A stretch of 51,812 nucleotides of DNA from an uncultured bacterium (GTDB lineage: Bacteria; Patescibacteriota; Minisyncoccia; Phycocordibacterales; UBA9973): contig CAIVBM010000045.1 of assembly GCA_903904195.1 (NCBI GenBank), positions 1 through 51,812 on the forward strand, read 5' to 3'. A program made the translations under genes and the position numbers. This document shows, in pieces, positions 1,676 through 42,713 of the stretch (the first letter of the stretch is position 1; the number at the start of each line of letters is the position of its first letter). Below the pieces are notes generated by a model. It made no database searches and was not told the origin of the DNA. It saw nothing but the letters and a program-made list of their open reading frames with translations.

Positions 1676-4600
1676 CTAATCTATAGTTTCTGATACCACC
1701 GTTCCTTCTTTGCTATCTCCCCCATATCCACTCCACCCATTCGCCACCGCCTGTCCAGTAAATGAAGATGTCTTATAATAAAGGGCAACTCTACCTCCTC
1801 CTCCAGCTCCATAACACATAGCTGGGCAAAATGTCCCGCCTCCTTTTGCCTGAAAAATTCCGTCACCATCGAGTGTATTTGTAGTTATATAGATACTTCC
1901 ACCACTAGATGTAATATTTCCTCCTGCAGACACTGTACCATTATTAATTAAATTATTTGCTATTAGTCTGATCGCTCCGCCACCACGAGTCAGACTTCCA
2001 TTTCCTCCACTACCAAAATCAACAGGCGCACTAGCAGAACCATAAATTGACGACTCATTACTACCAGAGCCCAACCCACCATAACTTGCGCCTTTCATAT
2101 ATGTCCCTGGGTTCTCTGGATCATATATAGGGCTAGGAGCTCCGAGACCAGTTGCCACCCCATATCCTTTAAAATCAGCCGAAATAGATGAACCTTTTTC
2201 TATATTAATATTGGAAACATTTAGAGCAAGAATTTTTTCAGGAATAATCGTAAGTATTGAATTCCCCATTAACATAAGAGAGTTAGCCATAATTATTTCA
2301 CTGCCTGAAAGAGTCAAAGTTGAAACCCCATCTATTTTAATTGTTGGAATATTTAATACTTGATTATCAGAAAGAGAAAAAAAAGAATTTTTATCAATAA
2401 CTAAATTATTCGCAGTTATATTTACATTATTCTCTGATGTTGCTTTTGTATCATTTAAAATATAAATATTATTAAAGGCAAACGGAGCATCATTGTTTCT
2501 AAATTGCCATGAACCACTTAAATAAGCATCATTTGCTGAACTATCAAAGATACCCATCGTACCCACTTGTCCACAAGAACTAGACCAACCATCGTAACTT
2601 CCACAACCTCCTTTGGCTTCTAAAGTTCCACTAAATGATGACGTTTTATAATACAGAGCAATCCTACCTCCACCACCAGGACTTTTAAAATAATCACCAA
2701 AATGGAGATTACCGCCATTCGCGCGAAAGATTCCATTTCCAGTAAATTTATTTGCAGTTACAAAAATACTACCACCACTAGCAGAGACAGCACCACTAGA
2801 AGAAATAATTCCATTATTAGTAAAAGTATCAGACACTACGATACGTATAGCCCCACCACCAAAACCATTATAAAAATCAGCTCCCCCGCTCCCTAAATCA
2901 ATCGGCTTGGTCGCAGAACCATACAAACTTGAAGTGGAAGCTCCTCCAAAACTAAAACCTCCATAACTTGCACCAACAGAAGGTTCTGAAGAAATTCCCA
3001 AACCTGCACCAGAGTTATAACCTTTTTGATCAGCTGAAATATAAGAACCAGAATTCACATTTAAATTTGAAACAGTAATCTTTACTCCCTTAAATGAATT
3101 TACGGAAAGTGGATCGCCAGCAACAGTCAAAACTGCATTATTTGTAATATTTAAATTATTAAAATAATATTCTCCCGCTGGTAAAGTTGCATTAGAGTCC
3201 ATCGTCACATCACTTTCTGTATTATCAGGAATTCCATTATTATTTAAATCAGAAGAAGATAATGAAATAGAAGGAAAAGCATCTGCGACGTTTACTGTGC
3301 GTGTAGCTGTCGCCGTATTATTATTTTTATCTTTCGCGGTATAAGTAATAACATAATTACCTGCCAACCAATTATTTACTACACCGGAAAAAAAGACATT
3401 TATCGGACCGTCAACATCATCAATGGCTGTGGCTCCCCCATCTATAAAAGCATCACCGATATTTATATTAACTGGGTTGGCACCTATTACAGAAATAGCT
3501 GGTGCAATATTATCAGAAGGCAAAACAGGCTCAACAATCGGCTCTGTATGAACTTCTTCTGGAATTATTATTTCAGCATTTACCCTATTTCCGCTACCTC
3601 CTCCAGCAGGATGTAAAGGATTAGAAACAACCTGAGTTTCTGGCGCAGGTTGCATGGTTGGAATATTTTCTTTTGTATTTATTACTTGCTCTGGTGTTGG
3701 TAAATTTGTTGTGTCTGAAGTTTGAACAATTGCTGAATTTGGAGATACATCAGCAAGACCTTCTATGGCGGAAATGGCTGAAGCAGTATTATTTACAGCT
3801 AAATTTTCATTTTTATTGAATATAGATTGAGCAAAAGAAGAAATAGAAGAAGCAACTGTATTTACTCCTTGAATTACTGCATTACCAACTGCTAGGCTAG
3901 TATTATATATTCCATTTACAATAAAAACTCCGGTGTCATAAGTAAGAACAATTCCATTTTTAACTACATCTGCAGTCGAGTCAGCAACTGCCAGCGCAAG
4001 ACCCTCTATTTTATGTCCGAGAGTTAATTTAGGCGGATTCATGCACGACGCGTTTTCATTTTGGATATTATTTGTTTGAAGTTTATCAAGCGAAGATTGA
4101 ATATCAGAAACAATTCTTGGAGTTTGATACTTTAAATAAATATCAAAATTATGCCCTAAAAAATTATCACCCTGTTGTAAATCAATATGAGCATTTGGTG
4201 GCAATATAGAAAAAATATCACCAGCGACGCCAGCAATAGCTTTATCCGTATCGGAAGTTATATATTTTCCTTCGCCCCCAACATGATCCGCTGGGGTTGC
4301 GACACTGTATACACCCAAAGATTCTGTTGGTATACCACCCTCTTTACCTGCAACTTTGTCATAAAAATTATTTGCATAAAAATTCCCCTGTGAATGACCA
4401 ACGAGAAGAACTTTTTGTGTACTTATCTTATTACTGGCATCATTTAGCATTTCTATTAAATCATAATCTGATTTTTGGCCAAAAAATCCCTGTTTAAAAG
4501 CATCAACAAAATCAAGCGCCCCAGCGATATGGGAGGGATTGAGGAGATATCTATAATTTATACTTTGATTCTTCCAATTAAAACCAAGAACTTTTTCAAG

Positions 4601-4766: not shown

Positions 4767-5399
4767 TTAGTTTAGTAAAGTTTTTAAATCTATATCACAA
4801 CCATCATTAGAAGCAGCATAACTACCAAGATTTCCTTCAAAAACTTTATTTAGATAATTCGTTCTTTGTGTGGTATTAAGCTGAAGATTTTCAACAAACT
4901 TTTCATTCTTATCTGTTTCTGCAATAAATTTTTTCATATTAGATCTAGAAGAAATACTCCAAACACAAATATGAGCCCTACTCTCATTGTCTTCCACAGT
5001 TGCTGTCACTGTATCTTTATTAATGATTGGTAAGGTCATTTGCATTTGTAATACTAGCGCATACTGCAACAGCACTGCCCTAGTTTTCGCAGACTTTGGA
5101 TATACATTGAAGATAGCGAGCTCTACATCATCGCGAATTCCATTATTATTTGCATCAATACCAGCCACAGTCTTATCAGCATCAGCTCCCGGATCCGGAG
5201 GAAGGTTCTTCCCCATAACATCATCTAGTATTAACTTCGTCGCATGAATTTTTGCTACTTCGGCATTTGTTTTATCTAAATTAAAAAGATGCACAACACG
5301 AACAACGACTAAAATAATATATAAACCCAGTAAAATTAAAAAAGCCCACTTAAATATTTTAAAAATCTTGTGAGCCAAAACTCTTTTTATTTTTTCCAT
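4767..5399 (-). CDS. Membrane-anchored hypothetical protein
   Basis: 210 aa with N-terminal TM helix WAFLILLGLYIILVVV. Has a DxNxxGxxDxxE-type loop (DANNNGIRDDVE) reminiscent of Ca-binding motifs. No family recognised. Confidence 0.65.
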   Translation of the reverse strand: MEKIKRVLAHKIFKIFKWAFLILLGLYIILVVVRVVHLFNLDKTNAEVAKIHATKLILDDVMGKNLPPDPGADADKTVAGIDANNNGIRDDVELAIFNVYPKSAKTRAVLLQYALVLQMQMTLPIINKDTVTATVEDNESRAHICVWSISSRSNMKKFIAETDKNEKFVENLQLNTTQRTNYLNKVFEGNLGSYAASNDGCDIDLKTLLN

Positions 5400-36700: not shown

Positions 36701-38466
36701 GATATATCTTCTATCCTCAATCTTAACTCTTCTCTGCCCCGAAATCTAGACAAATCAAAAGTGGCGAACAGATTCACCGCAAGGCCTTCGGATAAAGTTT
36801 TTTTGAAAGAATCTAGGCCGGAGAAAAAGGAAACGGCTTTGGCTTTGTTTTGATTGGAATCGGAAAATACAATTTCCAGATGCTCGCCGGATCCGTTCTT
36901 GCCAAACTTTTTTATTTTCTCTATCTTTACTCCTTCAAAAAGAAAAACGGGCTTCGGATTCCCTAAGCCAAAAGGTTCCAGCTTTTCTATTTCTTTCCAA
37001 TTTTTCATATTAATATCAGCTAAAGAAAGTTTTAAATCAAACCCCTCCTGCCTCCCCTTATCAGGGGAGGTTCCCGTTTCTCCACCTGATAAGGGGGAGT
37101 TAGAGGGGGTTGTATTTTGGAGTTTAATTTTCTTAAAATTCACCGACAAAGCTTCTTCCAAGAAATGGATTTTATCATTGTGGACAGTGAAACCTCCCGC
37201 CAATTCATGCCCGCCGAAATCCATAAATGATTCGCGGGTTTCCATCATAAGCTCCACGATGGATACAGAGCCGTCGCTTCGGCACGAACCCTTGATGCAG
37301 TCATTTTCATCCTTGCCCCAGACAAAAACCGGTTTTTGATATTCGTCCGAAATCTTCCCAGCCACCAGCCCCAGCACTCCCACGCGCCATTTCGGATTGC
37401 CTATCACTATCACCTCCGTTTCTTTTCTTTTTTCGAATTTTTTATTTACTTCGCGCATGATGCCCGTCACCATTGTTTTTCTTTCGTCATTTATTTTCGA
37501 CAAATGGTCCGCAAGCATCCCTCCTTTCACCACATCCTCTGTCGAGAGAAGCTCATAGGCACGCATCGGATCATCCATCCGTGAAGCGGCGTTTAATCTG
37601 GGCGTCACCATAAAGCCTATGTCGTCTACTGACAAATGCCTTTGGTCAATATTCATTTTCGCCAGAAGTTTTTGCAGGCCTGGGCGGGGAGATTTCTTGA
37701 GAACCTTCATTCCGAAACAAGCGATAGCCCTGTTTTCCCCCAAAAGGGGGACCATATCGGAGAGCGTAGCTAGCCCAGCCATATCCAGCATCCATTTTTC
37801 CGCGCCATCTCTTATTTTAAAATTCTGATTCTCTTTGCCGTATTTTTTTACGAACCCCTGAGCAAATTTAAAAACGACTCCGGCGCCACACAACATTTTT
37901 TCCGGATAGTTGTCTGTTTTCGGATTTAAAATTGCGCAAGCTCGAGGCAAAACTAAGGAGGCAGGCCCCGCCTGAGCTAGGCGGGGTAAATGGTGATCCG
38001 TAATTATCACATCTATGCCGTTAACTTCCGCTTGAGCCACTTCCGCAATAGCGGTGATTCCTAGGTCTACTGTAATTAAAAGTTTCACATTTGATTTTGC
38101 AAATTGTTTTATGGCATCGAGATTCAGCCCATAGCCTTCGGAATTGCGCTGAGGAATGTAAACCCCCACACCAAAATCTTTGGTGTGGGGGTAAACCTCA
38201 ACTGGCACATTTAGCATTTTAAATAAATCGGTAAGAATCACCGCTCCGGGTATGCCATCACAATCATAATCCGCGTAAATGACTATTTTTTCATTCGCAT
38301 CTATCGCTTCAAAGAGGCGGACGCAAGCCTTTTCCATATCTTTCATCAAAAAAGGGTCATGCAAATCCCGCTGATAGCTGGGATTCAAAAAAACGTCGGC
38401 CTGTTCGGCATTCTTGATATTCCTTTTCTCTAGAAGCGACCTCAGTAACTCGCCATACTTTTGCAT
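36697..38466 (-). CDS. recJ: Single-stranded-DNA-specific exonuclease RecJ
   Basis: 589 aa. Has DYDCDGI and VIITDHH (DHH motifs), a DHHA1 GGHELAGG, and PFGLGNPKPVF. It overlaps rnhA by ATGA. Confidence 0.93.
   Translation of the reverse strand: MQKYGELLRSLLEKRNIKNAEQADVFLNPSYQRDLHDPFLMKDMEKACVRLFEAIDANEKIVIYADYDCDGIPGAVILTDLFKMLNVPVEVYPHTKDFGVGVYIPQRNSEGYGLNLDAIKQFAKSNVKLLITVDLGITAIAEVAQAEVNGIDVIITDHHLPRLAQAGPASLVLPRACAILNPKTDNYPEKMLCGAGVVFKFAQGFVKKYGKENQNFKIRDGAEKWMLDMAGLATLSDMVPLLGENRAIACFGMKVLKKSPRPGLQKLLAKMNIDQRHLSVDDIGFMVTPRLNAASRMDDPMRAYELLSTEDVVKGGMLADHLSKINDERKTMVTGIMREVNKKFEKRKETEVIVIGNPKWRVGVLGLVAGKISDEYQKPVFVWGKDENDCIKGSCRSDGSVSIVELMMETRESFMDFGGHELAGGFTVHNDKIHFLEEALSVNFKKIKLQNTTPSNSPLSGGETGTSPDKGRQEGFDLKLSLADINMKNWKEIEKLEPFGLGNPKPVFLFEGVKIEKIKKFGKNGSGEHLEIVFSDSNQNKAKAVSFFSGLDSFKKTLSEGLAVNLFATFDLSRFRGREELRLRIEDIS
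37041..37112. repeat. Near-palindromic GC-rich element, in frame inside recJ
   Basis: acccctcctgcctccccttatcaggggaggttcccgtttctccacctgataagggggagttagagggggt. It has two inverted ctcccc(c)ttatcagg(g/t)ggag units and is translated as TTPSNSPLSGGETGTSPDKGRQEG in a linker. Confidence 0.7.
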
Positions 38467-38498
38467 AGATAGGATTTTAGCATATAATACATAAAGTT

Positions 38499-38852
38499 AT
38501 GGAAAACTGCATTTTTTGCAAAATAGTAAAAAAAGAAATACCGGCAAATAAAGTTTACGAGGATGAAAACTTCTTGGCTTTTTTGGATATCAGACCAATC
38601 GCCCCGGGACATACCCAGATAATACCGAAAAAGCATTATAGATGGGTTTGGGATGTGCCGAATATTGGAGAATTTTTTGAAGTTGCAAAAAAAATAGCCT
38701 TAGCTCAAAAAAAGGCTTTTAACGCGGATATTGTGCGCTCTCAAGTTTACGGCGAAGAAATACCTCATGCTCACATCTGGGTTTGGCCAGAAACCGTCGG
38801 TGACGAAAAAGATTTAAAAGGAAACGCCCAAAAAATCACCCAAGCGCTTTGA
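38499..38852 (+). CDS. HIT-family protein
   Basis: 117 aa. Has CIFCKIV...VYEDENFLAFLDIRPIAPGHTQIIPKKH. The triad region reads PHAHIWVWP (H-x-H-x-W). Confidence 0.88.
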   Translation: MENCIFCKIVKKEIPANKVYEDENFLAFLDIRPIAPGHTQIIPKKHYRWVWDVPNIGEFFEVAKKIALAQKKAFNADIVRSQVYGEEIPHAHIWVWPETVGDEKDLKGNAQKITQAL

Positions 38853-39813
38853 TTTTTTCCTCCAATTTATATGCGTTTCCGTGCAAAAGCATTCCTAAAT
38901 AAGACTGTTTTGATTCTTTTTTAAAATTATCTCTCAATGCTTTCAACATCCTTCTTTTCGTACTCGTCCTCAAAACCCTATGCTTTGGAAAATGCACCCA
39001 ACCCAGAAAATCAACACCAGAAACGATAGTTTTAATGAAAACTTTATCTGGATGCATATTCAATTTTAATTTATTTTCCAAAAACTCTTTCATTTTTTCT
39101 AAAATGTTTTTTAAATATCCCTTATCCTGCGATAAGATAACAAAATCATCCGCATACCTTATGTAATATTTAACTTTTAATTCCCTTTTCACAAACTGGT
39201 CAAATTCATTCATATAGATATTTACCAAAAGCTGGGAAGTCAAATTCCCTAACGGCAACCCTACTCCCGCAAGGCCTTGCCTTGCGGAGAAGCTGTCTAT
39301 CACTTGTGAAAGCAACCAGAGAATATCTGTGTCAAAGGTGGCCTTTGACAGTATTCTCTTTAAGATGTTATGGTCTATGTTTGCAAAGAATTTCCTGATG
39401 TCGCATTTTAAAACCCAGCAGGTTTTCGTGTTATTTTTTGAGACTTTTCTATGAAAATCACGAAATCTGTTTATCGCTTTGTGTGTTCCCTTTTCTGTTC
39501 TGCAGGAATATGAATCATAAATAAATTTTTTATCAAAAATCGGATATAAAATCCTATAGATAGCATGATGAAGAAGCCTGTCTCGAACTGTGGCTTTGTG
39601 TATGTTTCTAGGTTTCGGGTCCGAGATATTAAAAGCATAATATCCCCCGTGCGTATATATTTTGTTTTTCAAATCGCTATGGAGAGACAGAACATTGTCC
39701 ATTAAATGCAATTGAAATTCTTGCATATCTTTTCTATTTCTTTTTCCACATATAAATTCTTTCCAAGCCAAAAGTAAATTATCAACAGAAATTATTTTCT
39801 CAAAATTTACCAT
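38836..39813 (-). CDS. Diversity-generating retroelement reverse transcriptase
   Basis: 325 aa. Catalytic YIRYADDFVIL, plus the DGR-specific motif-4 signature LPLGNLTSQ ([LIV]GxxxSQ). No maturase or endonuclease extension. A TR/VR pair lies adjacent. Confidence 0.9.
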   Translation of the reverse strand: MVNFEKIISVDNLLLAWKEFICGKRNRKDMQEFQLHLMDNVLSLHSDLKNKIYTHGGYYAFNISDPKPRNIHKATVRDRLLHHAIYRILYPIFDKKFIYDSYSCRTEKGTHKAINRFRDFHRKVSKNNTKTCWVLKCDIRKFFANIDHNILKRILSKATFDTDILWLLSQVIDSFSARQGLAGVGLPLGNLTSQLLVNIYMNEFDQFVKRELKVKYYIRYADDFVILSQDKGYLKNILEKMKEFLENKLKLNMHPDKVFIKTIVSGVDFLGWVHFPKHRVLRTSTKRRMLKALRDNFKKESKQSYLGMLLHGNAYKLEEKIKALG

Positions 39814-39877
39814 ATTTATGCTATGATTCTACTTTATTAGATTAAAATATAAAAATTAAAAAAAATGACCAATAAGA

Positions 39878-39887
39878 CCCCCCCCCC
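39878..39887. repeat. Homopolymeric C10 (G10 on the minus strand) tract in the RT/avd divergent intergenic region
   Basis: Counted directly: c at 39878-39887. It lies 65-74 nt upstream of the RT ATG and 30-39 nt upstream of the avd ATG. Confidence 0.9.
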
Positions 39888-39916
39888 ACGAAAATTTTTT
39901 ACCAGTTTTAGAGATT

Positions 39917-40264
39917 ATGAAATCGGCATATATATTATGGCAAAGTTATCTGCCGACGATTCCGAAAACTTCGCGATATACCTTGTCGGAAACGATAGAT
40001 AAATACTTTATTCAAACGATTGAAAGCATTTTAGTCGCAAGTTTTTTGGAAAAACAAGAAAAGCAACCATTTGTCAGAAAAGCCATAATTTCGCTTGATA
40101 CTTTAAAATTTCTTTTATATATACTCTGGGAAATTAAAGCGTTGGATACTAAAAAATATACCGTATTATCCGAACCGCTTGCAGGTGCAGGGAAACAGCT
40201 CGGCGGATGGCATGGACAGCTCATAAAACAAAACTCTCCAGACAAGAAGTCTGGAGAGAAATGA
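39917..40264 (+). CDS. avd: Avd-like four-helix-bundle DGR accessory protein
   Basis: 115 aa, helical and basic. The pattern P.IPKTSRYTLSETID...LDTLKFLLYILWEIKAL..KKY..LSEPL...GKQLGGW matches the four-helix-bundle (Avd / 23S rRNA IVS protein) family. It sits between the RT and the TR, on the strand opposite to both. Confidence 0.75.
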   Translation: MKSAYILWQSYLPTIPKTSRYTLSETIDKYFIQTIESILVASFLEKQEKQPFVRKAIISLDTLKFLLYILWEIKALDTKKYTVLSEPLAGAGKQLGGWHGQLIKQNSPDKKSGEK

Positions 40265-40270
40265 AGAGAG

Positions 40271-40401
40271 TTGCGGGAGGGACCACGCAAACGCACCGTT
40301 GTCGTTCCAGTTGTTGTCGGGGTTAGCCCAATTCGTGTTGAGCCACCTGCCATCGTCGTTACGATTGACACCGAGGAAGTGCGGGTTGCCGTTGACCTCG
40401 A
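40271..40401 (-). repeat. DGR template repeat (TR)
   Basis: 131 nt, collinear with 40788-40918. Of 20 mismatches, 19 are at minus-strand adenines of this copy. In the target frame it encodes the Asn-rich NGNPHFLGVNRNDDGRWLNTNWANPDNNWNDNGAFAWSLPQ. Confidence 0.9.
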
Positions 40402-40664
40402 ATGTGTAAAATGCCTTCCATAACGCCTTTCGGCCACCACCCATCGAACATTTTTTCTTAGGGTTGAATATAATTCGGCATCGCAATGCCCTAGCACTTT
40501 ACACCAAGTATCTTCAATTTTTGAAGTTTCTACATAAACCACTCTATTTTTAACCTTAATCAAAAATACTCTGGATTTATGGATACTGGTTTCGGCAGAA
40601 AGAAACCTTGATCTCTTTCAGACTCGCCTATTCCCTTTTTTAGTATATCAAAATAAAATGTAAA

Positions 40665-40707
40665 CGAAAAAGGCCTCGCGCTCCACCGAAGTGAAAACGC
40701 GAGGACC
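40665..40707 (-). terminator. Intrinsic terminator after the DGR target gene
   Basis: On the minus strand cctcgcg-tttt-cac-ttcg-gtg-gag-cgcgagg (with a UUCG loop) is followed by ccttttt. Confidence 0.65.
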
Positions 40708-40772
40708 TATTTGATTCGAGTTCAGGACTAAGTTCTAAGAATCCAAGCGCCGAAGCACTGATTCTCAAGATC

Positions 40773-41441
40773 TCAGGACTGATTTTCTTGCGGGAGGGAC
40801 CACGCAAACGCACCGTCGTCGCTCCAGCGGTTGCCGGGGCCAGCCCAACTCGCGCTGAGCCACCCGCCACCGCCGCAACAATCGACACCGAGGAAGCGCG
40901 GGTAGCCGTCGACCTCGATGGGTTTGTGAATTCCGACAATCCACAAAAGACCCATCTTCTCCAACTGCTTATCGGAGAAGCACTTGCGGATGATGCAGAC
41001 GGCCTCGGGATGAAGCTCCAGCCACTTGCGCAAGAGGCCTTCAGCCTGAATTGCCTTGGTGGTCCGCTCGGAATCTTTCTTCCAGAAAGTCGCCCTGAGA
41101 GCGACAATCCTGTGAACAAAGCCTGGAGCAGTCGGCCGGAAGGCCTCCGATTGCAAAACTGCTTTGGCATCGTCCGAGAGCTTGATGTCCTGCTCATCGA
41201 AGTATTCAATCCACTGCGGACCTGTCACGCCTTCCGACGGCGGAAGCGTGATGTAGATCAGGTCACCCCTGGTCTCCCATGCGGCCTTGCCGGGGACCGA
41301 CACGACATTCACAGGAAACGGATTCTCTCCGCGACCAACCGCCTTGAGGCGTTCGAGATACTCACTGGCACCTTCGCTGGCCAGTTTCTCGTTGATGTCG
41401 TCAATGACCCCGCGAGCATCTGCATACATGATTTTACTCAT
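40773..41441 (-). CDS. DGR variable (target) protein with C-terminal C-type-lectin-like VR
   Basis: 222 aa with no signal peptide. The C-terminus EVDGYPRFLGVDCCGGGGWLSASWAGPGNRWSDDGAFAWSLPQENQS carries the VR. A strong SD (AGGAAAGGA) lies upstream. The gene is GC-rich relative to the rest of the window. Confidence 0.85.
   Translation of the reverse strand: MSKIMYADARGVIDDINEKLASEGASEYLERLKAVGRGENPFPVNVVSVPGKAAWETRGDLIYITLPPSEGVTGPQWIEYFDEQDIKLSDDAKAVLQSEAFRPTAPGFVHRIVALRATFWKKDSERTTKAIQAEGLLRKWLELHPEAVCIIRKCFSDKQLEKMGLLWIVGIHKPIEVDGYPRFLGVDCCGGGGWLSASWAGPGNRWSDDGAFAWSLPQENQS
40788..40918 (-). repeat. DGR variable repeat (VR)
   Basis: The 131-nt counterpart of the TR. It ends 12 nt (4 codons) before the target gene stop. 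Its 3'-terminal 29 nt (minus sense) are identical to the TR and GC-rich (IMH-like). Confidence 0.9.
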
Positions 41442-41611
41442 GATTTCCTTTCCTCTGCATTTTGCATGTCAGGGTCTCACAACAGTGAGATGACCCGAGA
41501 TGCGCGCCGATATGTTTGATGGTTACGGCGTTCTTTCAAAGCTCTTTTATAAAAAAACCCTAAAAGAACGCCGCAATTTCGCAAGATTTTTAAAGAACTT
41601 TATACCACCGC

Positions 41612-41641
41612 ATTATACTACACTTTATGGCTATTTGTCAA
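41612..41641 (-). promoter_or_regulatory. Sigma70-type promoter facing the DGR target gene
   Basis: The minus strand reads TTGACA - 18 nt - TATAAT, both hexamers perfect. It lies about 170 nt upstream of the target ATG, just after the pgk stop. Confidence 0.5.
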
Positions 41642-41648
41642 CAAAATT

Positions 41649-42713
41649 CTACCCAAGCGCTTTGATGCCGGGGAGAGTTCCGTTTGCCAAGAAATCAAGC
41701 GTTGCTCCGCCACCTGTTGAAACAAAGGAAAAATCTTTTTCCATTTTCATTTCTGAAATTAATGCAACGGTATCTCCCCCGCCGATTATGCTTTCAGCTT
41801 TTGAATCTGCAACTAATTTCAATATTTCTTTGGTGGATTTTCCTCCGCCAGCCTCATACTTGCCGAGCGGACCGTTCCAGAGGATGAGTTTTGATTTTTT
41901 AATGATGGGTTCCAAATTTTTTACCGTTTCAGTTCCAATATCTAGAATAATTTCATCTTTTCCAACTTCGTTTACTTTTTTATTTACCAAATTACCGACT
42001 GATTTCACCATTACATCAACCGGTAAAATGAGTTTCTTGTTTTCTAATACTTTTTTAATATCGTAATTCGAATCGTCAACGAGAGATTGCCCGACTTCGT
42101 AGCCTTTAGCTTTCAAAAAATCATTCGCCAACGCTCCGCCAATGAAAACCTCATCCGCCAGCTCCAGATATTTTTCTATCAAAGGCATTTTGGTGGAAAA
42201 TTTCGCTCCGCCCAAAATGAAAAGGAATGGATGCTTTATTTTACTGAATGCGTGAGATAAATTTTTTACTTCTTCCTCCAGTTGAAGTCCGGCATAAGCG
42301 GGCAGGAGTTTCGGCAGTGAAACAATAGACGCGTGTTCCCTGTGTGAAACCGAAAAAGCATCGTTTACATAAATATCGCCGAGCTTTGAAAGCTTTTCGG
42401 CAAAAGCCGGATCATTTTCGGCTTCGCCGGGGAATTTTCTGACGTTTTCAAAAAAAGTAATTTTATCTTTGGCTATTTTCGATATTTCAAAAAAACGGTT
42501 AATCACCGGCTCGAGGCTTTCAGTGCCATCTTTGCCGAGGTGAGTGATTAAAATAATTTTTGCGCCTTTTTCGAGCAAAAAATTTATCGTCGGTAAGGCG
42601 GCTCGAATTCTAAAATCATCTTCCACCTGCCCGTTTTTTATAGGCACATTGAAATCCACCCTCACTAGAGCTGTTTTACCTTCTATATTTTTTATTTGCT
42701 TGATGCTTCGCAT
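41649..42713 (-). CDS. pgk: Phosphoglycerate kinase
   Basis: 354 aa. Has VRVDFNVPI, ILITHLG and a C-terminal STGGGATLDFL. Confidence 0.95.
   Translation of the reverse strand: MRSIKQIKNIEGKTALVRVDFNVPIKNGQVEDDFRIRAALPTINFLLEKGAKIILITHLGKDGTESLEPVINRFFEISKIAKDKITFFENVRKFPGEAENDPAFAEKLSKLGDIYVNDAFSVSHREHASIVSLPKLLPAYAGLQLEEEVKNLSHAFSKIKHPFLFILGGAKFSTKMPLIEKYLELADEVFIGGALANDFLKAKGYEVGQSLVDDSNYDIKKVLENKKLILPVDVMVKSVGNLVNKKVNEVGKDEIILDIGTETVKNLEPIIKKSKLILWNGPLGKYEAGGGKSTKEILKLVADSKAESIIGGGDTVALISEMKMEKDFSFVSTGGGATLDFLANGTLPGIKALG

Follow-up and report, generated by a model that had tools for sequence, protein, structure and literature searches.

A Patescibacteria diversity-generating retroelement with a structured RNA around its template repeat and a C10 tract in avd

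The locus described here raises two questions: whether a reverse transcriptase (RT) gene lying near an imperfect repeat represents a diversity-generating retroelement (DGR), and whether such an element is able to operate. [quoted passage not shown] We analyzed the whole 51.8-kb stretch of DNA in which it resides (the window). Its central features are the following.

38836..39813, minus strand: DGR reverse transcriptase, 325 amino acids, RT domain only
40271..40401, minus strand: TR, 131 nucleotides with 32 adenines
40773..41441, minus strand: target gene, 222 amino acids, with the VR at its 3' end
40788..40918, minus strand: VR, encoding target residues 175-218

A repeat search returned the TR/VR pair as a single direct repeat of 131 nucleotides, with 85% identity and an offset of 517. 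Compared base by base, the repeats align without gaps over 131 nucleotides with 20 mismatches, and 19 of these lie at TR adenines on the minus strand, exactly as previously claimed; by the hypergeometric distribution, at least 19 of 20 mismatches would fall on A with a probability of 1.8e-13. The adenine mismatches, read from TR to VR, comprise 16 A>G (previously counted as 15), 2 A>T and 1 A>C. The sole remaining mismatch, already noted as a C/T difference, is a C>T change that converts CGT to TGT (Arg to Cys). Adenines number 32 in the entire TR and 28 from the first to the last mismatch, and the figure of 30 given earlier for the variable part should read 28 or 32, depending on the definition used. 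All but one of the 32 occupy codon position 1 or 2, and the TR contains 9 AAC and 2 AAT codons; the translations quoted earlier for the two repeats are correct. The first two bases of the VR complete codon 175, and its complete codons are 176-218. The preliminary description was also right that the final 29 nucleotides of TR and VR are identical, and that the VR ends 4 codons short of the target stop. No additional VR-like copy occurs anywhere in the window.

The RT carries both LPLGNLTSQ and YADD, in agreement with the LGNLTSQ and YADD motifs reported before, and is devoid of a maturase or endonuclease part. It matches Pfam RVT_1 (1e-27), and its best PDB match is 8ub7_A (5e-43, 150.7 bits); the highest-scoring group II intron RT in that search reached 4e-23 (85.4 bits). 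The active-site numbering of 8ub7_A (D215/D216) agrees with that of the Bordetella DGR RT, bRT (bioRxiv 10.1101/2023.10.23.563531), and, judged by sequence, bRT is the closest relative of the window RT. A chance or ordinary segmental duplication beside a group II intron-type or retron-type RT gene might be considered, in that the best NCBIfam model for the RT is group_II_RT_mat (5.7e-44, 150.7 bits versus a cut-off of 300) and no DGR-specific RT family in NCBIfam was returned for the protein. However, this reading is refuted by the adenine-specific mismatch spectrum, by bRT as best structural relative, by the presence of an Avd homologue, and by cassettes in 8 further related loci, whose own TR/VR pairs have between 9/10 and 21/21 of their mismatches at A. 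The missing maturase domain also speaks against it, as does the lack of a match to any Rfam family, group II intron or other, and we regard it as vanishingly improbable. The locus is therefore a DGR, as had been claimed on the basis of the adenine-specific pair, RT and Avd.

The target gene and its flanks contain three further elements.

41612..41641, minus strand: sigma-70-type consensus promoter TTGACA-18-TATAAT (12/12 match), upstream of the target
40722..40782, minus strand: long imperfect inverted repeat with a UUCG loop, beginning 6 nucleotides downstream of the VR
40662..40707, minus strand: intrinsic-terminator-like hairpin after the target (GGUCCUCGCG...CGCGAGGCC, then a U-tract)

The target gene has a GC content of 58%, compared with 38% for the window. 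Its predicted product has no signal peptide and no transmembrane segment by hydropathy and composition, and its sequence matches nothing in Pfam, NCBIfam or PDB. The lack of a signal peptide, previously taken to imply an intracellular protein, is thus upheld and resembles CPR DGR targets; it does not imply a location, and for those targets, which also lack signal peptides, an intracellular location is an open question (PMC8144416). The target family comprises 1454 clusters at 50% identity (E <= 1e-3), and the hypervariable columns of its alignment are the VR columns; some members are orphans with neither TR nor RT nearby. AF2 models of the target are confident (pLDDT 88 for the whole protein, 93.5 for residues 100-222), and Foldseek searches with them gave no significant match. 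The CLec fold expected earlier was therefore not confirmed, and the modelled fold appears only weakly C-type-lectin-like, the sole whole-domain resemblances being weak and to folds of that type. Downstream of the VR, the RNA of positions 40655-40800 folds with z = -3.7. The inverted repeat at 40722..40782 does no better than shuffled sequences as single-stranded DNA (z = -0.85), and 9/9 relatives have a hairpin of different sequence at the equivalent position. It fits the GC-rich inverted repeat described downstream of the IMH (PMC5758913).

The region between the target gene and the TR, and the nucleotides just beyond the TR, carry features suggestive of a separate RNA.

40642..40650, minus strand: extended -10 promoter-like element TGaTATACT, directly past the U-tract of the target-gene terminator
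40402..40635, minus strand: structured 5' domain of the DGR RNA, with covariation, conserved in 9 loci
40635-40588, minus strand: P1 of the 5' domain
40581-40533, minus strand: P2 of the 5' domain
40520-40504, minus strand: conserved single strand AAAUUGAAGAUACUUGG of the 5' domain
40504-40493 with 40415-40404, minus strand: P3, a long-range helix ending 3 nucleotides before the TR
40490-40477, minus strand: P4 hairpin of the 5' domain
40464-40439, minus strand: P5 of the 5' domain
40259..40270, minus strand: conserved CUCUCUUCAUUU, directly 3' of the TR and kept in almost all loci
40225..40258, minus strand: 3' stem-loop of the DGR RNA (10-bp stem 40258-40234, loop UUCUU, then UUUUGUUUU)

We infer that the TR is embedded in an RNA of ~410 nucleotides that has its own promoter, a ~235-nucleotide 5' domain, and a 3' hairpin followed by a U-tract. 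RNAalifold assigns 58 pairs to the 5' domain, 35 of them with compensatory changes. An nhmmer search with this domain returned 73 matches, covering ~70 of 80 avd-anchored loci and all on the strand opposite avd. Among 63 aligned sequences, 97.0% of cells are paired, where shuffles give 80.6% and slid controls 36-51%, and double changes occur at 46 of 56 pairs; the 658 double-change cells compare with 174 +/- 18 in shuffles, none of 500 of which reaches the observed value. The predicted ~235-nucleotide domain is thus strongly supported by covariation. The 3' stem-loop, which overlaps the final avd codons in antisense, begins at a constant distance past the TR in 9/9 loci and, across 48 loci, shows compensatory changes at 7 of 9 stem pairs with 93% of cells paired. 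A terminator scan finds that it resembles an intrinsic terminator; if the hairpin fails to terminate, the RNA may run on through antisense avd. Upstream, TGnTAnAAT recurs at the position of TGaTATACT in nearly all 63 aligned loci. The elements at 40642..40650 and 41612..41641 would act as promoters for the DGR RNA and the target, respectively, the promoter and terminator assignments being consensus matches only. We also propose that CUUCAUUU (40266-40259) pairs with AAAUUGAAG (40520-40512) of the 5' domain. In this helix 87% of cells are paired, GC>AU compensations occur at only two pairs (in 4 and 7 sequences), and one position is mismatched in the window. A search for a Bordetella-like TR:Sp priming duplex gave results that were inconsistent between loci.

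The remaining component, avd, lies on the strand opposite to RT, TR and target, an orientation missed in the preliminary description.

39865..39877, plus strand: avd start codon and short conserved leader (MTNK-T), upstream of the homopolymer tract
39878..39887, plus strand: C10 homopolymer, G10 when read on the RT strand, within the 5' portion of the avd coding sequence
39869..40264, plus strand: avd body reading frame

The avd body is open from just past an in-frame TGA (39866-39868) and matches Pfam bAvd (2.9e-8) and NCBIfam DivGenRetAVD (2e-13), both under curated cut-offs. Gene callers place its start at an internal ATG (39917), giving 115 amino acids; that this annotated start is not conserved likewise went unnoticed before. 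With C10, the body is shifted to +1 with respect to the leader ATG; C9 or C12 would be in frame. Because of the tract, the conserved start is out of frame with the body, and ordinary translation of the consensus therefore cannot yield full-length Avd.

The tract is the only G/C run of at least 7 in the window, and 50 of 51 G/C runs of at least 8 in 248 kb of related loci are the avd tract. Among 68 related loci, 53 carry a tract at the equivalent position, C7-C12 in length and with homologous leaders 5' of it; 10 of these 53 have the leader ATG in the avd frame, and the other 43 have it out of frame (29 in the +1 and 14 in the -1 frame), counts that do not equal independent events since the loci share phylogeny. 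The tract of both L029 and L039 is C9, which places the leader in frame with avd. Relatives whose Avd is 85-93% identical to that of the window have tract lengths of 8-12 and represent all three frames, and L036 and L038, with 100% identity in the aligned avd core, differ by a 1-nucleotide indel in the tract remnant.

An alternative that we judge unlikely is that the DGR is constitutively competent, with Avd made from ATG 39917 and the tract being part of the RT promoter or 5' UTR, or functionless. An ATG does stand at this position in the window, where a weak AGAG lies ahead of it, and in some relatives, and a truncated 115-residue Avd might be made and suffice. Moreover, the tract is C10 in every same-strain contig that crosses it. 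In distant relatives, 13-20 nucleotides separate the G-tract from the RT start codon downstream of it, and the 5' end of RT is overlapped in antisense by the avd leader; the RT gene could then account in part for the conservation of the leader, and RT expression could be what the tract affects. However, the codon aligned with 39917 in 59 relatives is Met in just 9, the others being I (17), L (14), V (12), and T, C, A or S. Just 5' of 39917, the LLPVL(E/Q)K segment has a protein-coding substitution pattern in these 59 relatives: over 7-8 codons, LLPVLEK shows third-position variation, an invariant Pro and conserved Leu, and is therefore translated in the avd frame. In 12 of 15 tract-less relatives the leader ATG opens a continuous leader-plus-Avd ORF, for which ~1 in 3 would be expected by chance. 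Of the 43 out-of-frame loci, 39 lack any canonical start codon (ATG, GTG or TTG) in the avd frame within the stretch that separates the tract from the last stop before it. Comparison among relatives thus indicates that the true avd start is 39865 and that 39917 is not a conserved start.

The VR alleles bear on whether the element has been active. At least 8 assemblies or runs supply nine same-strain loci that share 99.9-100% identity with the window, and their VR is identical wherever covered. A contig of a sibling assembly (P0001) encodes the window target outside the VR and differs at 13 VR residues, exclusively at A-templated codons; all 11 differences between its VR and the TR are reachable by A>N. 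In another pair of sequences (P0017/P0175), differences are also confined to the VR. The P0001 allele indicates that diversification has occurred in the population, albeit not frequently at the consensus level. The static VR together with one A-templated variant makes activity look episodic, plausibly gated by the avd C tract. The earlier assessment of a complete, apparently active element thus holds as to RT, Avd, TR and target, and is qualified by the out-of-frame avd start and the static VR.

The uniform VR, seen in at least 9 same-strain contigs, might instead mark a recently inactivated, fossil DGR with a frameshifted avd and a frozen VR, P0001 then being an older allele. The out-of-frame avd leader, the one non-adenine TR/VR mismatch, and the orphan target-family members would accord with such a history. 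Yet the RT and avd body ORFs are intact with catalytic motifs kept, and the TR retains 32 adenines, almost all at codon positions 1-2. Intact, conserved but out-of-frame avd genes in 43 related loci are unlike independent decay, and the identity of P0001 outside the VR means that the alleles separated very recently. We consider inactivation improbable, more so than constitutive competence.

The explanation that we favor, and consider probable as a whole, is a B3 DGR with a separate TR RNA and a tract-gated Avd. Transcription of the target would begin at the gene's own consensus promoter and end at 40707-40662, and the extended -10 promoter directly behind this terminator would drive a separate non-coding RNA of ~410 nucleotides, composed of the ~235-nucleotide 5' domain, the TR, and the 3' hairpin with its U-tract. 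Helix P3 would join the 5' domain to the nucleotides directly preceding the TR, and the 5' domain would probably also pair with the downstream flank (AAAUGAAG : CUUCAUUU). Pairing on both sides would hold the TR as a closed loop, perhaps a functional analogue of the downstream Sp clamp on both TR ends in Bordetella, with the scaffold mostly 5' of the TR, unlike the Bordetella DGR RNA. RT and Avd would copy the TR into cDNA, misincorporating opposite adenines, and the cDNA would replace the VR; ~20 variable codons could yield ~1e18 peptides. Avd synthesis would require a frame change inside the C10 tract, either by phase variation, with the DNA slipping to C9 or C12, or through slippage of RNA polymerase or the ribosome. 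The switch would be off or low in the consensus genome, which fits a uniform same-strain VR with one variant allele in the same population.

The element is a chromosomal DGR of the CPR/Patescibacteria type with architecture B3 (target-VR, TR, reversed avd, RT), and no feature separates it from CPR B3 DGRs or from DGR clade 2. The hosts are Patescibacteria here as well, with relatives in Saccharibacteria, Paceibacterota, Parcubacteria and Kerfeldbacteria. Sequence comparisons indicate that the avd C tract and the 5' RNA domain are clade-wide features. We found no description of either in the literature searched, outside which lies Paul et al. 2017 (Nat Microbiol), reportedly the primary description of CPR DGRs. 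In gene order and in the reversal of avd the element follows the CPR B3 DGRs of Wu et al. [quoted passage not shown] The small target with no recognizable transmembrane segment or Pfam domain is shared with 'DGR clade 2' of Roux et al. 2021 (PMC8144416).

The Bordetella phage BPP-1 DGR (mtd-avd-TR-brt) shares a homologous RT (5e-43), an Avd homologue, adenine-specific mutagenesis, a GC-rich 3' end identical in TR and VR, and an inverted repeat after the VR. The stem-loop a few nucleotides after the TR occupies the position of the Avd-binding stem-loop (bioRxiv 10.1101/2023.10.23.563531), and the sequence just upstream of the TR lies in a duplex (compare cPRT Stop), although the partner strand is 5' of the TR in the window and 3' of it in BPP-1. 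Unlike in BPP-1, the window avd is on the other strand and is not the source of the RNA upstream of the TR. The target differs as well, in that it is no phage tail fibre and lacks a demonstrable C-type lectin fold. The window has ~235 nucleotides of conserved structure before the TR and ~47 nucleotides from the TR to the terminator-like U-tract, whereas Bordetella has a 140-nucleotide Sp region after the TR.

The avd tract also resembles the phase-variation contingency loci of Campylobacter, Neisseria and Bordetella (PMC8355987, PMC2831843, PMC1891110), which have G/C runs of 8-12 in the 5' coding part. Its length likewise varies between close relatives across three frames, and it is the sole such run in the region. 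In contrast to those loci, tract-length variation is known here from comparison between relatives, and out-of-frame states are over-represented (43/53) with a +1 bias (29 versus 14), which could instead reflect transcriptional or ribosomal slippage on CCC-C proline codons. A further difference is that the gene under control, avd, itself belongs to the mutagenesis machine.

A single direct repeat of 131 nucleotides (40271-40401 and 40788-40918, offset 517, 85% identity) was recovered by a repeat search of the window. When the two copies are read on the minus strand as template repeat (TR) and variable repeat (VR), they differ at 20 positions, 19 of which are TR adenines (16 A>G, 2 A>T and 1 A>C). 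The lone non-adenine difference is a C>T change that converts CGT to TGT. Given 32 adenines in the 131 nucleotides of the TR, at least 19 of 20 mismatches would fall on A by chance with p = 1.8e-13. The VR lies at the 3' end of an open reading frame (40773-41441), in whose frame 31 of the 32 TR adenines occupy codon positions 1 or 2 and the TR contains 11 AAY codons (9 AAC and 2 AAT). The preliminary description had reported this same pair, with 19 of 20 mismatches at TR adenines, and is correct apart from small miscounts: its 15 A>G changes are 16, and its 30 adenines are 28 or 32, depending on the definition.

The final 29 nucleotides of TR and VR are identical, and the VR ends 4 codons ahead of the target stop. 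This common 3' boundary is GC-rich and IMH-like, and an inverted repeat follows the VR alone, the hairpin downstream of the TR being a different one. An IMH/IMH* sequence difference in the style of Bordetella was not seen, as TR and VR are the same to the last base. No additional VR copies were found in the window by matching to the non-A positions of the TR on both strands.

Features of the retroelement in the window
41641-41612, minus: predicted target promoter, matching the sigma-70 consensus at 12/12 positions
40773-41441, minus: target gene, 222 amino acids
40782-40722, minus: long imperfect hairpin with a UUCG loop, beginning 6 nucleotides past the VR
40707-40672, minus: strong terminator-like hairpin and U-tract after the target (terminator scan and RNA fold)
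40650-40642, minus: conserved TGnTAnAAT element, directly past the target terminator
40504-40493 paired with 40415-40404, minus: helix P3, ending 3 nucleotides ahead of the TR
40258-40234, minus: 3' hairpin of 10 bp, followed by UUUUGUUUU and antisense to the last avd codons
39917-40264, plus: avd as annotated (bAvd 2.9e-8, DivGenRetAVD 2e-13, each below its curated cut-off)
39878-39887, plus: C10 tract between the reverse transcriptase gene and the annotated avd start, the sole G/C run of at least 7 in the window

The minus-strand ORF at 38836-39813 encodes a reverse transcriptase (RT) of 325 amino acids that matches RVT_1, contains both LPLGNLTSQ and YADD, as in RTs of the DGR lineage, and has no maturase, endonuclease, or other extra domain. 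In a PDB sequence search, its closest solved structure is 8ub7_A, an RT of 328 amino acids (5e-43, 150.7 bits), ahead of the best group II intron RT (4e-23). The catalytic aspartates of 8ub7_A are D215/D216, in agreement with the numbering of bRT (bioRxiv 10.1101/2023.10.23.563531), and by sequence the Bordetella bRT is thus the best match to our RT among solved structures. NCBIfam returned no DGR-specific RT family for this protein, and its group II and retron models score far under their cut-offs. With no maturase domain in the RT and no intron or msr/msd RNA detected in a scan of 38000-42500 against Rfam at E <= 1, which gave no relevant family and one chance miRNA match, we rejected a group II intron or retron as the identity of the element. 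The gene order, TR followed by reversed avd and then RT, with an adjacent upstream target, is that of the B3 architecture of CPR DGRs (Wu et al. 2018, PMC5758913). We conclude that the element is a genuine DGR, typical of the CPR clade.

The hairpin past the VR occurs at this position in all 9 loci compared, with a different sequence in each relative. An inverted repeat downstream of the IMH is known for DGRs (PMC5758913), and the post-VR hairpin of the window fits that element. We also considered a DNA cruciform and rejected it, as the single-stranded DNA fold is no better than that of shuffled sequences, whereas the RNA fold is good. Between the target promoter and the target start at 41441 is a leader of ~170 nucleotides that contains another inverted repeat with 27-nucleotide arms (41523-41576). 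This repeat could be an attenuator or the pgk terminator; Rfam gives only a chance miRNA match there (E = 0.15).

The target protein has no sequence match in Pfam, NCBIfam, or PDB. Among 5.8 billion clustered proteins it has 21 close homologues, and a profile search at E <= 1e-3 extends the family to 1454 clusters (50% identity), of which 1004 reach E <= 1e-10, with lengths of 115 to 262 amino acids among the 150 matches listed. No Pfam family is shared among 114 sampled members, and a profile of these 114 has no relatives in PDB. The family alignment shows conservation over the N-terminal 175 residues and hypervariable columns in the VR. The target lacks a hydrophobic segment (maximum 19-residue Kyte-Doolittle mean 0.73), and in this respect resembles CPR targets of clade 2, which carry no recognizable transmembrane or other domains and are possibly genuinely non-membrane-bound (Roux et al. 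2021, PMC8144416). The target is also GC-rich (58%, compared with 38% across the window and 33-37% in the RT and avd genes). This excess is not confined to the VR, since the remainder of the gene has 55% GC, and an offset of +8 to +15 points is also present in six related loci (L001, L006, L009, L012, L016, and L019).

A test for a C-type lectin fold had been proposed for the modelled C terminus of the target. AlphaFold2 gives a confident model (pLDDT 88 for the whole target and 93.5 for residues 100-222), with a predicted beta-alpha-alpha topology followed by four strands and the VR on the last strands. Foldseek searches with the full model against PDB and BFVD, and with the domain model against PDB, yielded no significant match and nothing at E < 0.08. 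The only whole-domain similarities, weak and at E > 1, are to C-type-lectin-like folds (convulxin, TM 0.36; rhodocetin, 0.41; TSG-6 Link module, 0.46/0.60). A compact, divergent C-type lectin fold is plausible for the predicted structure.

Approximately 235 nucleotides after the TGnTAnAAT element are conserved in all of the first nine loci, distant ones included, and RNAalifold predicts 58 pairs on these nine, 35 of which have compensatory changes. An nhmmer profile of this 5' domain (40402-40635, minus strand, helices P1 to P5) gives 73 matches on ~70 of 80 avd-anchored metagenomic loci, always on the strand opposite avd. Among 63 sequences, 97.0% of cells form standard pairs, compared with 80.6% in shuffles and 36-51% when partners are slid by 1-3 columns. 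In the same set, 46/56 pairs have changed on both sides, and 658 double-change cells are observed, compared with 174 +/- 18 in shuffles (0/500 reach the observed number). Insertions in some loci are within hairpin loops. Covariation is strong evidence that the template RNA carries a structured 5' domain, for which Rfam has no family. A naive ORF scan would call a gene of 106 amino acids across the TR (40166-40486, minus strand). Because this ORF has no family match and lies where the RNA structure covaries, it should not be annotated as coding.

On the other side of the TR, a conserved CUCUCUUCAUUU follows immediately. Its CUUCAUUU is complementary to a conserved single-stranded AAAUGAAG of the 5' domain, and this putative helix is paired in 87% of cells. 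Two of its pairs show GC>AU compensations, and the window has one mismatch in it. The 3' hairpin begins at the same offset in all loci, and 7/9 of its pairs covary. We infer a separate DGR RNA of ~410 nucleotides, from ~40635 to ~40226, with most of its scaffold 5' of the TR; its promoter, terminator, and priming site are putative. We also looked with RNAduplex for a Bordetella-like priming duplex between the TR 3' end and Sp, together with a Stop duplex between upstream and downstream sequences. The partners differ between loci, and this search was therefore dropped in favour of alignment-based covariation.

Several related loci have unusual arrangements of this RNA. L011 (903-1206) carries two insertions of one sequence of ~27 nucleotides, CAGTAGGTCATTCT[A/G]CTGAATGA, one in the terminal loop of P1 and the other in that of P4. 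The insert could represent a small mobile hairpin or an extra module for protein binding. L019 (~5050-5120) has a 69-nucleotide insertion with a 13-bp hairpin directly past the U-tract of the DGR RNA, bounded on both sides by TTTTGT in a manner resembling a target-site duplication. A 63-kb contig, L053, carries two copies of the 5' domain ~2.1 kb apart (641-880 and 3002-3249), which could represent two template RNAs or two cassettes.

The avd gene is on the strand opposite to RT, TR, and target, and its product has no match in a sequence search of PDB. Homology to Avd is present, albeit with scores under the cut-offs, and the conserved start is placed out of frame with the gene body by the C10 tract. 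The leader ATG at 39865 opens MTNKTPPPRKFF..., whereas the avd frame has a TGA at 39866-39868 and then reads PIRPPPHENFLPVLEI-MKSAY.... A hypothetical C9 tract would join leader and avd as MTNKTPPHENFLPVLEIMKSAY, a form that matches two relatives with C9 (L029 and L039) and two without a tract (L006/L030, MTDKIPHGKFLPVLEIMKSAY). As in phase-variable contingency loci, the leader ATG of the window is separated from the avd body by a homopolymer, and the reading frame depends on its length.

State of the avd tract in 68 loci with sufficient upstream sequence (related loci, not independent events)
53/68 loci: C7-C12 tract at this position (mode 9-10)
10 loci: tract present, leader ATG in frame with avd
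29 loci: tract present, avd out of frame with the leader ATG (+1)
14 loci: tract present, avd out of frame with the leader ATG (-1)
15/68 loci: no tract
12/15 loci without tract: continuous leader and Avd ORF

These tracts account for 50 of the 51 G/C runs of at least 8 in 248 kb of the loci. From the last stop up to the tract, the avd frame contains none of ATG, GTG, or TTG in 39/43 out-of-frame loci. The window's internal ATG at 39917 might yield a truncated Avd. Its aligned codon in relatives encodes I, L, V, M, T, C, A, or S, and it is therefore not a conserved start; the LLPVL[E/Q]K codons between the tract and this annotated ATG have a coding-type substitution pattern in relatives. The comparative evidence for this anatomy of an interrupted avd is strong. 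As judged from consensus sequences, ordinary translation cannot give full-length Avd in most such elements, even though their avd is conserved and intact in other respects.

The tract is most simply read as a slippage switch, whose mechanism we can only surmise. It could act by phase variation of the DNA, which is favoured by the mixture of frames and tract lengths. Alternatively, RNA polymerase or the ribosome could slip on the CCC-C proline codons, and the excess of +1 states might favour this version. The tract shows signs of mutability: relatives with Avd 85-93% identical to that of the window have lengths of 8 to 12 and all three frames, and a 1-nucleotide indel in a decayed tract separates two loci (L036 and L038) with 100% identical avd cores. 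Within the strain of the window, a search with the exact target and Avd proteins found no other tract length, all consensus contigs being C10. Four contigs terminate within the tract. Many independent assemblies also break at or beside it, several contigs starting or ending inside (39865-39940 in the window; L021, L024, L025, L026, and L111; also L044, L061, and L102), and contig breaks there are compatible with either length heterogeneity or poor read coverage of the G/C run.

It is also possible that the tract acts on RT and that the RT gene drives conservation of the leader. In favour of this alternative, the avd leader of distant relatives overlaps the RT 5' end in antisense, with the G-run 13-20 nucleotides upstream of the RT start. 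RT and avd overlap head-to-head in eight loci (L054, L068, L072, L079, L085, L056, L046, and L084), where each start codon is antisense to a conserved His codon of the other gene: the RT ATG to one in the avd leader, and the leader ATG to one in the RT N terminus.

Taking the slippage switch together with the RNA, we propose that mutagenesis by DGRs of this CPR clade is under a stochastic switch, a C8-C12 tract in avd, and uses a TR scaffold that is mainly a 5' domain of ~235 nucleotides with its own promoter. We hold this combined model tentatively, at slightly short of an even chance. Full-length Avd would be made only after a +/-1 change in the tract between the avd start codon and the body, whether by DNA slippage or by slippage of RNA polymerase or the ribosome. 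Since full-length Avd would need such a change, most cells would keep the retroelement silent, and rare cells would diversify the target. Our literature search, of incomplete coverage, found no link of DGRs or Avd to homopolymer tracts, frameshifts, or phase variation.

Eight related loci have TR/VR pairs of their own, with between 9/10 and 21/21 mismatches at TR adenines. Nine further loci, drawn from at least 8 assemblies or runs, represent the strain of the window, being 99.9-100% identical to it and having the same VR where it is covered. In a sibling assembly (ERZ1426829), the protein P0001 equals the window target outside the VR and differs at 13 VR residues in a protein-level comparison; A>N changes can account for each of the 11 differences between P0001 and the TR. 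A second pair, P0017/P0175, also differs only in the VR. These pairs indicate that diversification is recent in these populations, while the dominant allele is stable across samples. The element had initially been called complete and apparently active. It is complete as a parts list, and activity is borne out only to the extent that a second, A-compatible VR allele exists. In the consensus genome avd is out of frame, and the VR is stable across samples.

Relatives of the target occur on contigs titled Saccharibacteria, Paceibacterota, Parcubacteria, Kerfeldbacteria, and Patescibacteria. The DGR of the window is flanked by housekeeping genes, with recJ and a HIT-family gene on one side and pgk and tpiA on the other; related cassettes are in other contexts, such as beside clpB. 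Some family members have neither TR nor RT in the flanks fetched (L003-5, L007, L013-15, and L018), and are either orphan targets or targets served in trans. The genes next to them are, for instance, murB or trmD, and L003-L005/L010 are on a 282-kb contig of Paceibacterota. The VR-equivalent segment of one target-family protein, P0016, looks degenerate. In L017, 12/12 TR/VR mismatches are at A. Its avd is recognizable in the C-terminal half alone, an unrelated open frame having taken the place of the N-terminal half, and no RT with Y[AMV]DD was picked up over ~2.2 kb downstream from the end of the TR.

Finding a DGR in a CPR genome is ordinary in itself: the group is enriched in DGRs, and this one has the standard gene order and a standard small target without recognizable domains. 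The 5' RNA domain and the homopolymer interruption of avd are, on comparative grounds, clade-wide features documented here, and neither was found in Rfam or in the literature searched, the coverage of which was incomplete. If real, the avd switch would be a simple way for cells to limit the cost of a hypermutator. Tract length modulo 3 would then be an ON/OFF marker readable from sequence, which could be correlated with VR turnover in metagenomic time series. The covarying 5' domain is a ready model for finding DGR RNAs in CPR bacteria, and the target family, which comprises at least 1000 clusters (50% identity), is absent from Pfam, and has a structure predicted with confidence, offers a handle on a possible intracellular role of CPR DGR targets.

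The model of the 5' domain also makes it possible to ask if the architecture of the Bordetella ribonucleoprotein has been conserved or permuted. In Bordetella, an Avd-binding stem-loop lies just 3' of the TR, and a 140-nucleotide downstream Sp has two pairing partners: the TR 3' end, in priming, and the nucleotides that directly precede the TR, in the cPRT Stop (bioRxiv 10.1101/2023.10.23.563531). The window likewise has a stem-loop after the TR. However, the strand that would clamp both TR flanks, which is the downstream Sp in Bordetella, is upstream of the TR in the window. By this analogy, the DGR RNA of the window's clade would correspond to that of Bordetella in rearranged form.
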